Shown piece by piece: positions 30,202 to 30,219 of a stretch of DNA of 64,000 bases. The stretch comes from Escherichia coli (GTDB taxonomy: Bacteria > Pseudomonadota > Gammaproteobacteria > Enterobacterales > Enterobacteriaceae): NCBI RefSeq assembly GCF_046105845.1, contig NZ_CP151004.1; one strand, 5' to 3'. The position numbers and the translations under genes are program-made. The notes below the pieces were generated by a model. That model did no database searches, was not told the origin of the DNA, and was given only the letters and a program-made list of their open reading frames with translations. Position 1 is the stretch's first letter. Each line of letters begins with the position of its first letter.

Positions 30202-30219
30202 AAAATTGTTAACAATTTT
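30202..30219. promoter_or_regulatory. Perfect 18-bp palindrome AAAATTGTTAACAATTTT upstream of lpd
   Basis: Read directly; lies about 210-225 bp upstream of the lpd ATG in the aceF-lpd spacer; binding factor not assigned. Confidence 0.4.

Follow-up and report, generated by a model that had tools for sequence, protein, structure and literature searches.

A perfect 18-bp palindrome upstream of Escherichia coli lpd is very probably the centre of the known ArcA operator

The perfect 18-bp palindrome AAAATTGTTAACAATTTT upstream of lpd is, with high confidence, the middle of a known operator through which the oxygen-responsive regulator ArcA, as ArcA-P, represses the independent lpd promoter of Escherichia coli. 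Once recognized as part of an ArcA operator, the palindrome counts as an ordinary, known feature. This control of lpd is textbook knowledge, the site was mapped experimentally in 1998 and in 2013, and its recognition here adds no new biology. It lies in a stretch of 64,000 nucleotides, referred to as the window, in which 901 of 901 bases compared are identical to positions 127300-128200 of K-12 MG1655, where aceF and lpd are annotated. Window positions (w) convert to K-12 positions as 127587 + (30318 - w). A 501-bp stretch around the dyad was matched in 5,425 of 5,426 complete E. coli genomes. The protein encoded downstream, lipoamide dehydrogenase (Lpd), is the E3 subunit common to the pyruvate and 2-oxoglutarate dehydrogenase complexes. 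The features of the locus are listed in window positions:

28569..29993, minus strand: coding sequence of lpd (lpdA), the gene under the dyad-bearing promoter, with its ATG at 29993
30188, minus strand: published start of lpd transcription (K-12 127717; 195 nt before the ATG)
30194..30226, minus strand: 33-nt ArcA-P operator TTGTTTAAAAATTGTTAACAATTTTGTAAAATA with three direct repeats (K-12 127679-127711; -38 to -6)
30217..30226, minus strand: first ArcA direct repeat, TTGTTTAAAA (Ri 9.4 bits as published), overlapping the -35 element
30206..30215, minus strand: second ArcA direct repeat, TTGTTAACAA (Ri 11.7 bits as published), on which the dyad is centred
30194..30203, minus strand: third ArcA direct repeat, TTGTAAAATA (Ri 10.7 bits as published), at 12-bp spacing and overlapping the -10 element
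30218..30223, minus strand: -35 hexamer TTTAAA from a consensus scan, its position agreeing with the published start
30195..30200, minus strand: -10 hexamer TAAAAT from a consensus scan, TAnnnT being kept in 79 of 79 orthologous loci
30202..30219, no strand: perfect 18-bp palindrome AAAATTGTTAACAATTTT (K-12 127686-127703; -31 to -14 relative to the lpd start)
30285..30315, minus strand: GC-rich hairpin followed by a T-run, terminator-like, just past the aceF stop
30318..32210, minus strand: coding sequence of aceF, the upstream neighbour of lpd, ending at 30318

The assignment rests first of all on published experiments, which established ArcA occupancy in vivo, arcA-dependent repression, the anaerobic loss of sigma-70 and the transcription start. 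We drew the ArcA data from Tables S1, S3, S4 and S6 of Park et al. (2013, PMC3798270). According to these, two replicates gave ArcA ChIP-seq peaks at K-12 127646 and 127683. In the same tables, an ArcA box of 18 bp (ttgtttaaaaattgttaa) is placed at 127682 with an Ri of 21 bits, which is among the highest in the list, and the repeats of TTGTTTAAAAATTGTTAACAATTTTGTAAAATA at 127682, 127693 and 127705 carry 9.4, 11.7 and 10.7 bits. Deletion of arcA left lpdA expression 6.1-fold higher under anaerobiosis, and sigma-70 occupancy of the lpdA promoter was significantly reduced anaerobically (PMC3798270). Earlier ArcA-P binding at lpd is credited by the same paper to Cunningham et al. (1998). The lpd operator in the tables of Park et al. 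(2013) and, through their citation, in Cunningham et al. (1998) is the same DNA as the site considered here and belongs to the class with three direct repeats and 12-bp spacing. The dyad symmetry is unremarked in that published description, which otherwise does not differ from ours.

The sequence-only reading had noticed a resemblance to the half-sites of global regulators but could not assign the site from sequence. This is indeed operator DNA of a global regulator, and arcA was among the backgrounds that had been listed for testing, but the site can be assigned, namely to the published ArcA-P operator. The 18-bp inverted repeat is in turn not the regulator's unit. The recognized units are three tandem direct repeats spread over 33 nt, and the operator extends beyond the dyad by 7 nt on its upstream side and by 8 nt on its downstream side.

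The position within the promoter can be given exactly. An internal, ArcA-regulated lpd promoter has been placed 195 nt upstream of the lpd ATG (PMC2759082), and the start is also fixed by Table S6 of Park et al. (2013), where 127679-127711 corresponds to -38 to -6 (PMC3798270). Relative to this start the locus shows what is expected of a sigma-70 promoter, that is, recognizable hexamers, a spacer in the range of 16-18 bp and a suitable distance from the mapped start: -35 and -10 are separated by 17 bp and transcription begins 7 nt after the -10 hexamer. The dyad (-31 to -14) fills the spacer between both hexamers almost exactly, and its earlier placement in the independent lpd promoter is borne out, since it sits between the -35 hexamer TTTAAA and the -10 hexamer TAAAAT. 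The coordinates and this overlap with the promoter were obtained in the present analysis, as were the matrix score and the conservation pattern described below.

To the palindrome as such, little has to be corrected. The sequence and the coordinates (30202-30219) of the perfect 18-bp dyad had been read exactly, and the proposed distance of about 210-225 bp upstream of the lpd start compares to a measured 209-226 nt from the ATG (29993). The arms of the inverted repeat AAAATTGTTAACAATTTT measure 9 nt each, are 100% complementary and adjoin with zero spacer; they end where a c at 30201 faces a t at 30220. It is the longest perfect palindrome of the 64-kb window, the runners-up having arms of 8 and 7. 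The second-longest, CCAAAGTTAACTTTGG at 50017-50032 with 8-nt arms, has a GTTAAC centre too. The earlier statement that such a dyad is unlikely by chance holds for the 324-bp aceF-lpd spacer, where an arm of at least 9 occurred in 0.12% of 20,000 dinucleotide-preserving shuffles, and the local AT-rich 70 nt gave 0.125%. It weakens at the scale of the window: when all 64 kb were shuffled, 25% of the shuffles held at least one palindrome with an arm of at least 9 (mean 0.3). Thus AAAATTGTTAACAATTTT is improbable for the aceF-lpd spacer, yet merely mildly so across a 64-kb scan.

We further scored the window with an ArcA log-odds matrix built from the 114 other boxes of Table S3, leaving out lpdA, and scanned both strands. 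With 21.9 bits, the lpd site is the best of about 128,000 window positions and scores above every training site. The next non-overlapping matches lie at acnB (26347, minus strand, 17.6 bits) and pdhR (36037, minus strand, 16.2 bits), scores that are not independent, since the published sites of both genes belong to the training set. At the lpd site we found the composition of an ArcA box, that is, at least two TGTTAA-like repeats about 11 bp apart from centre to centre. Scored as single repeats on the lpd strand, the peaks fall at 30226 (TTGTTTA, 7.1 bits), 30215 (TTGTTAA, 10.7 bits) and 30203 (TTGTAAA, 8.8 bits), which is the published register. The same matrix gave 19.5 bits for ATTTTACAAAATTGTTAA on the opposite strand. 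This high score arises because the middle repeat TTGTTAACAA is self-complementary and reads TTGTTAA on either strand. As a minor new point, the symmetry of the lpd operator thus suffices for an ArcA box to be read on one strand or the other.

The action of the operator can be described as follows. Under anaerobic or microaerobic conditions ArcB phosphorylates ArcA, and ArcA-P binds the tandem repeats TTGTTTAAAA, TTGTTAACAA and TTGTAAAATA at spacings of 11 and 12 bp. As an OmpR/PhoB-type response regulator, ArcA-P places its DNA-binding domains head-to-tail on tandem repeats (Park and Kiley, 2014). The bound protein covers the -35 element, the entire spacer and the -10 element (-38 to -6), so that sigma-70 RNA polymerase would be excluded and lpd transcription would drop when the quinone pool is reduced. 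It is from this geometry that we infer promoter occlusion as the mechanism. The dyad would be formed by the middle repeat TGTTAAC, with its self-complementary GTTAAC, and by the flanking A/T-rich AAAAT/ATTTT linkers, which ArcA boxes favour. The three-repeat ArcA operators of icdA, putP, acs and other genes (Park and Kiley, 2014) resemble that of lpd in having tandem TGTTAA-like repeats about one helical turn apart; in these, as at lpd, the repeats overlap sigma-70 elements, and repression proceeds by exclusion of RNA polymerase, as it probably does at lpd. The lpd operator differs from them in two respects: all three of its repeats lie within -38 to -6 and are strong (9.4 to 11.7 bits), and its middle repeat is self-complementary and consequently scores well on both strands.

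For a comparison across the order, a scan with the Lpd protein, using one genome per species, provided 80 Enterobacterales loci, 79 of which had sufficient upstream DNA. Group A comprises 41 sites with at most 5 mismatches to the E. coli 33-mer, from Enterobacteriaceae, Pectobacterium, Rahnella, Ewingella and others. The repeat cores (positions 2-6, 13-19 and 22-28) are invariant in all 41, and variation is confined to positions 1 (in one locus), 7, 11, 12, 20, 21, 29-31 and 33. Positions 29-31 form the middle of the -10 hexamer and position 33 follows directly after it, while the others, apart from position 1, are linker. The -10 hexamer occurs as TAAAAT, TAAACT, TAAGAT, TAATAT, TACTAT or TAGAAT, with TAnnnT in every case. 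The symmetry is far less constant. In 19 of the 41 sites the palindrome is extended to the 20-bp form CAAAATTGTTAACAATTTTG, because position 7 is C; the 18-bp form is present in five (two Escherichia and three Kluyvera); and in 17 the dyad arm is only 3-5 nt, while the forward ArcA box still reaches 17.9-21.1 bits (at least 20.3 in 16 of the 17). Natural substitutions that break the dyad but are neutral for the repeats include A11T in Buttiauxella and A20G in Pectobacterium.

The remaining 38 sites (Group B) stem from Pantoea, Erwinia, Tatumella, Yersinia, Serratia, Hafnia, Edwardsiella and others, and in every one of them the dyad arm is reduced to 2-5 nt. Here GCAGTTTGTT or CAGATTATT stands in place of the left arm, whereas AACAATTCT, the right arm, is retained. 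The -35 hexamer is TTTGCA or TTGGCA and the -10 hexamer is TAAACT in 38 of 38. In nearly all of these sites the forward box does not reach 11 bits (14.2 bits in Rosenbergiella). On the opposite strand, nearly all have the box AGTTTACAGAATTGTTAA with 15.5 bits, close to the median of 16.4 in the training set. Conservation of the repeat cores was hence found in both groups, as invariant positions in the 41 sites and as an antisense ArcA box of about 15.5 bits in the 38 divergent ones. Judged from these alignments, the promoter and an ArcA-type box are conserved throughout the order, whereas the long dyad is not. As a second minor new point, the dyad symmetry is lineage-specific and has been lost in Erwiniaceae, Yersinia, Serratia and Hafniaceae.

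Some further observations concern the DNA on both sides of the operator. The first 20 nt of the lpd transcript (30169-30188, minus strand), GGATAGAACG(A/T)CCCGGTGG, are almost invariant in Enterobacteriaceae, and the CCCGGTGG part is retained by most of the divergent loci of Erwiniaceae and Yersiniaceae; no covarying stem was seen in these 20 nt across loci L002-L081. Farther downstream, the lpd 5' UTR contains a repeat of the ERIC/IRU type with an imperfect long palindrome (about 30024-30165, minus strand, roughly +24 to +165). Its inverted arms are 30024-30050 with 30124-30150 and 30072-30085 with 30090-30103. The core of the repeat, cctcaccccagtcacttacttatgtaagctcctggggattc, matches the ERIC primer sequences, and the traits of such elements were all found: an imperfect palindrome of about 127 bp, several copies in a genome, a transcribed intergenic location and presence or absence between strains. 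The repeat is present at lpd in 3,433 of 5,426 complete E. coli genomes, other copies lie at a median of 5 places in each E. coli genome, and it is absent from the lpd leader in one E. coli locus (L002) and in Salmonella, Klebsiella and Citrobacter. With it, the lpd leader measures 195 nt, without it about 78 nt. Leaders longer by about 110-130 nt also occur in several unrelated genera (Raoultella, Serratia, Pectobacterium, Pantoea, Erwinia, Yersinia and Izhakiella; loci L019, L020, L023, L033, L038, L052, L063, L064, L072, L074-L076, L079 and L081), where 219-256 nt instead of 84-131 separate the ArcA site from the lpd ATG. These leader lengths suggest independent insertions of a similar repeat at the same place. 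On the other side of the promoter, the hairpin at 30285-30315 is flanked by A-runs and T-runs on both sides (AAAAAAGCCGGCC...GGCCGGCTCTTTT) and is therefore terminator-like on both strands, while our promoter and terminator scan called it on the plus strand only.

If the palindrome is not the unit that ArcA recognizes, its symmetry requires an explanation of its own. We sampled 400,000 three-repeat sites from the columns of the ArcA matrix and compared them to random 33-mers. Arms of at least 9 occurred in 5.7e-4 of the ArcA-model sites versus 4.8e-5 of the random 33-mers and are thus about 12 times likelier in the former. The ArcA model favours a palindrome because C often follows TGTTAA (25%), which creates GTTAAC, and because the linkers are A/T-rich. 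Over the 176 ArcA regions of the genome, about 0.1 sites with perfect 9-nt arms are expected. Most likely, the symmetry would then follow incidentally from a repeat that contains GTTAAC and is joined by A/T linkers, and would have no reader of its own. We favour this explanation because the direct-repeat cores and the -10 hexamer persist across 79 Enterobacterales while the dyad shrinks. Pure coincidence is plausible but not comfortable, given the low frequency per ArcA-model site and the 20-bp palindrome in almost half of the close relatives.

The rarity of the palindrome under the ArcA model leaves room for a minority view, according to which the symmetry has been favoured by selection. Two opposed ArcA boxes would share the central TTGTTAACAA and ArcA-P could load either way; the antisense box, which overlaps the -10 element, would be ancestral and order-wide, and the upstream repeat in lpd sense would have been added later in Enterobacteriaceae and Pectobacteriaceae. 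The opposite strand is indeed a strong box in E. coli, AGTTTACAGAATTGTTAA holds its score in Group B where the forward box mostly does not, the invariant core TTAACAA corresponds to the consensus repeat TTGTTAA read on the other strand, and the palindrome is rarer than the ArcA model alone predicts. Furthermore, ArcA repeats have been found in either orientation relative to promoters (Park and Kiley). However, the first antisense repeat consists of the -10 hexamer and two further bases read on the opposite strand, and its conservation is already accounted for by promoter function. The decisive G is also missing from its proper place in this repeat (94% of the boxes have G in column 3). The published assignment consists of three repeats on the same strand with 9-12 bits each, and the 17 close relatives without a long dyad keep their forward box intact. 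We therefore regard selection for symmetry as unlikely. If true, it would present a head-to-tail response regulator on a symmetric operator.

Still less probable, and in our view quite doubtful, is that the dyad serves as the operator of another dimeric helix-turn-helix regulator (of PdhR/GntR type, FNR, CRP, Fur or an unknown one) or as a Fis or IHF site that shares its DNA with ArcA. The perfect inverted repeat would suit such a protein, the half-site AATTGTT resembles the PdhR half-site AATTGGT, a Fis-like pattern with 1 mismatch lies at 30210-30224, and both the Fis and the CRP regulon are listed as including lpdA. The PdhR box of the pdhR promoter, AATTGGTaagACCAATT, belongs to the same operon and is likewise an inverted repeat with a similar half-site (AATTGKT). 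However, the half-sites of the lpd dyad abut while those of the PdhR box are 3 bp apart, which results in 5 mismatches to the 17-mer. The dyad was scanned with consensus patterns for FNR, CRP, PdhR, Fur, IHF, Fis, Lrp and NsrR sites, and all matches were poor or non-specific. Against these patterns, PdhR has 5 mismatches and the wrong half-site spacing, FNR 3, CRP 4 and Fur 8, hence the combination of consensus and half-site spacing of a PdhR-, FNR-, CRP- or Fur-type palindromic operator was not found at the dyad. The Fis and IHF patterns are so degenerate that 0.3-0.4% of the window positions match equally well. Nor are both half-sites conserved: the arm is 2-5 nt in 38 of 79 species and 3-5 nt in another 17, and in the 38 more distant species the left arm has diverged while the right arm was kept. 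In addition, PMC10572922 states, citing Cunningham (1998), that the lpd promoter is not bound by PdhR.

It is most improbable that the palindrome acts as a nucleic-acid structure, whether by forming a cruciform when the DNA is supercoiled or by folding, within the read-through pdhR-aceEF-lpd transcript, into a hairpin that signals processing or stability. The self-complementary 18-mer does lie inside that transcript and is predicted to fold at -12.6 kcal/mol with its flanks, but this fold is unremarkable (z = -1.9, with 10 of 200 shuffles folding at least as well), and its stem is all A-U apart from two G-C pairs, those of the dyad. A scan of 29900-30400 against Rfam at permissive thresholds gave no match over the dyad and nothing near any gathering score, and the symmetry is gone in 38 of 79 species without compensating changes. 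Compensatory change was rejected as a test of the dyad itself, since protein operators are not expected to covary like RNA stems.

Taken together, the palindrome is best placed within the ArcA-P operator of the independent lpd promoter. The lpd operator is the means by which E. coli cuts the synthesis of lipoamide dehydrogenase once respiration stops.
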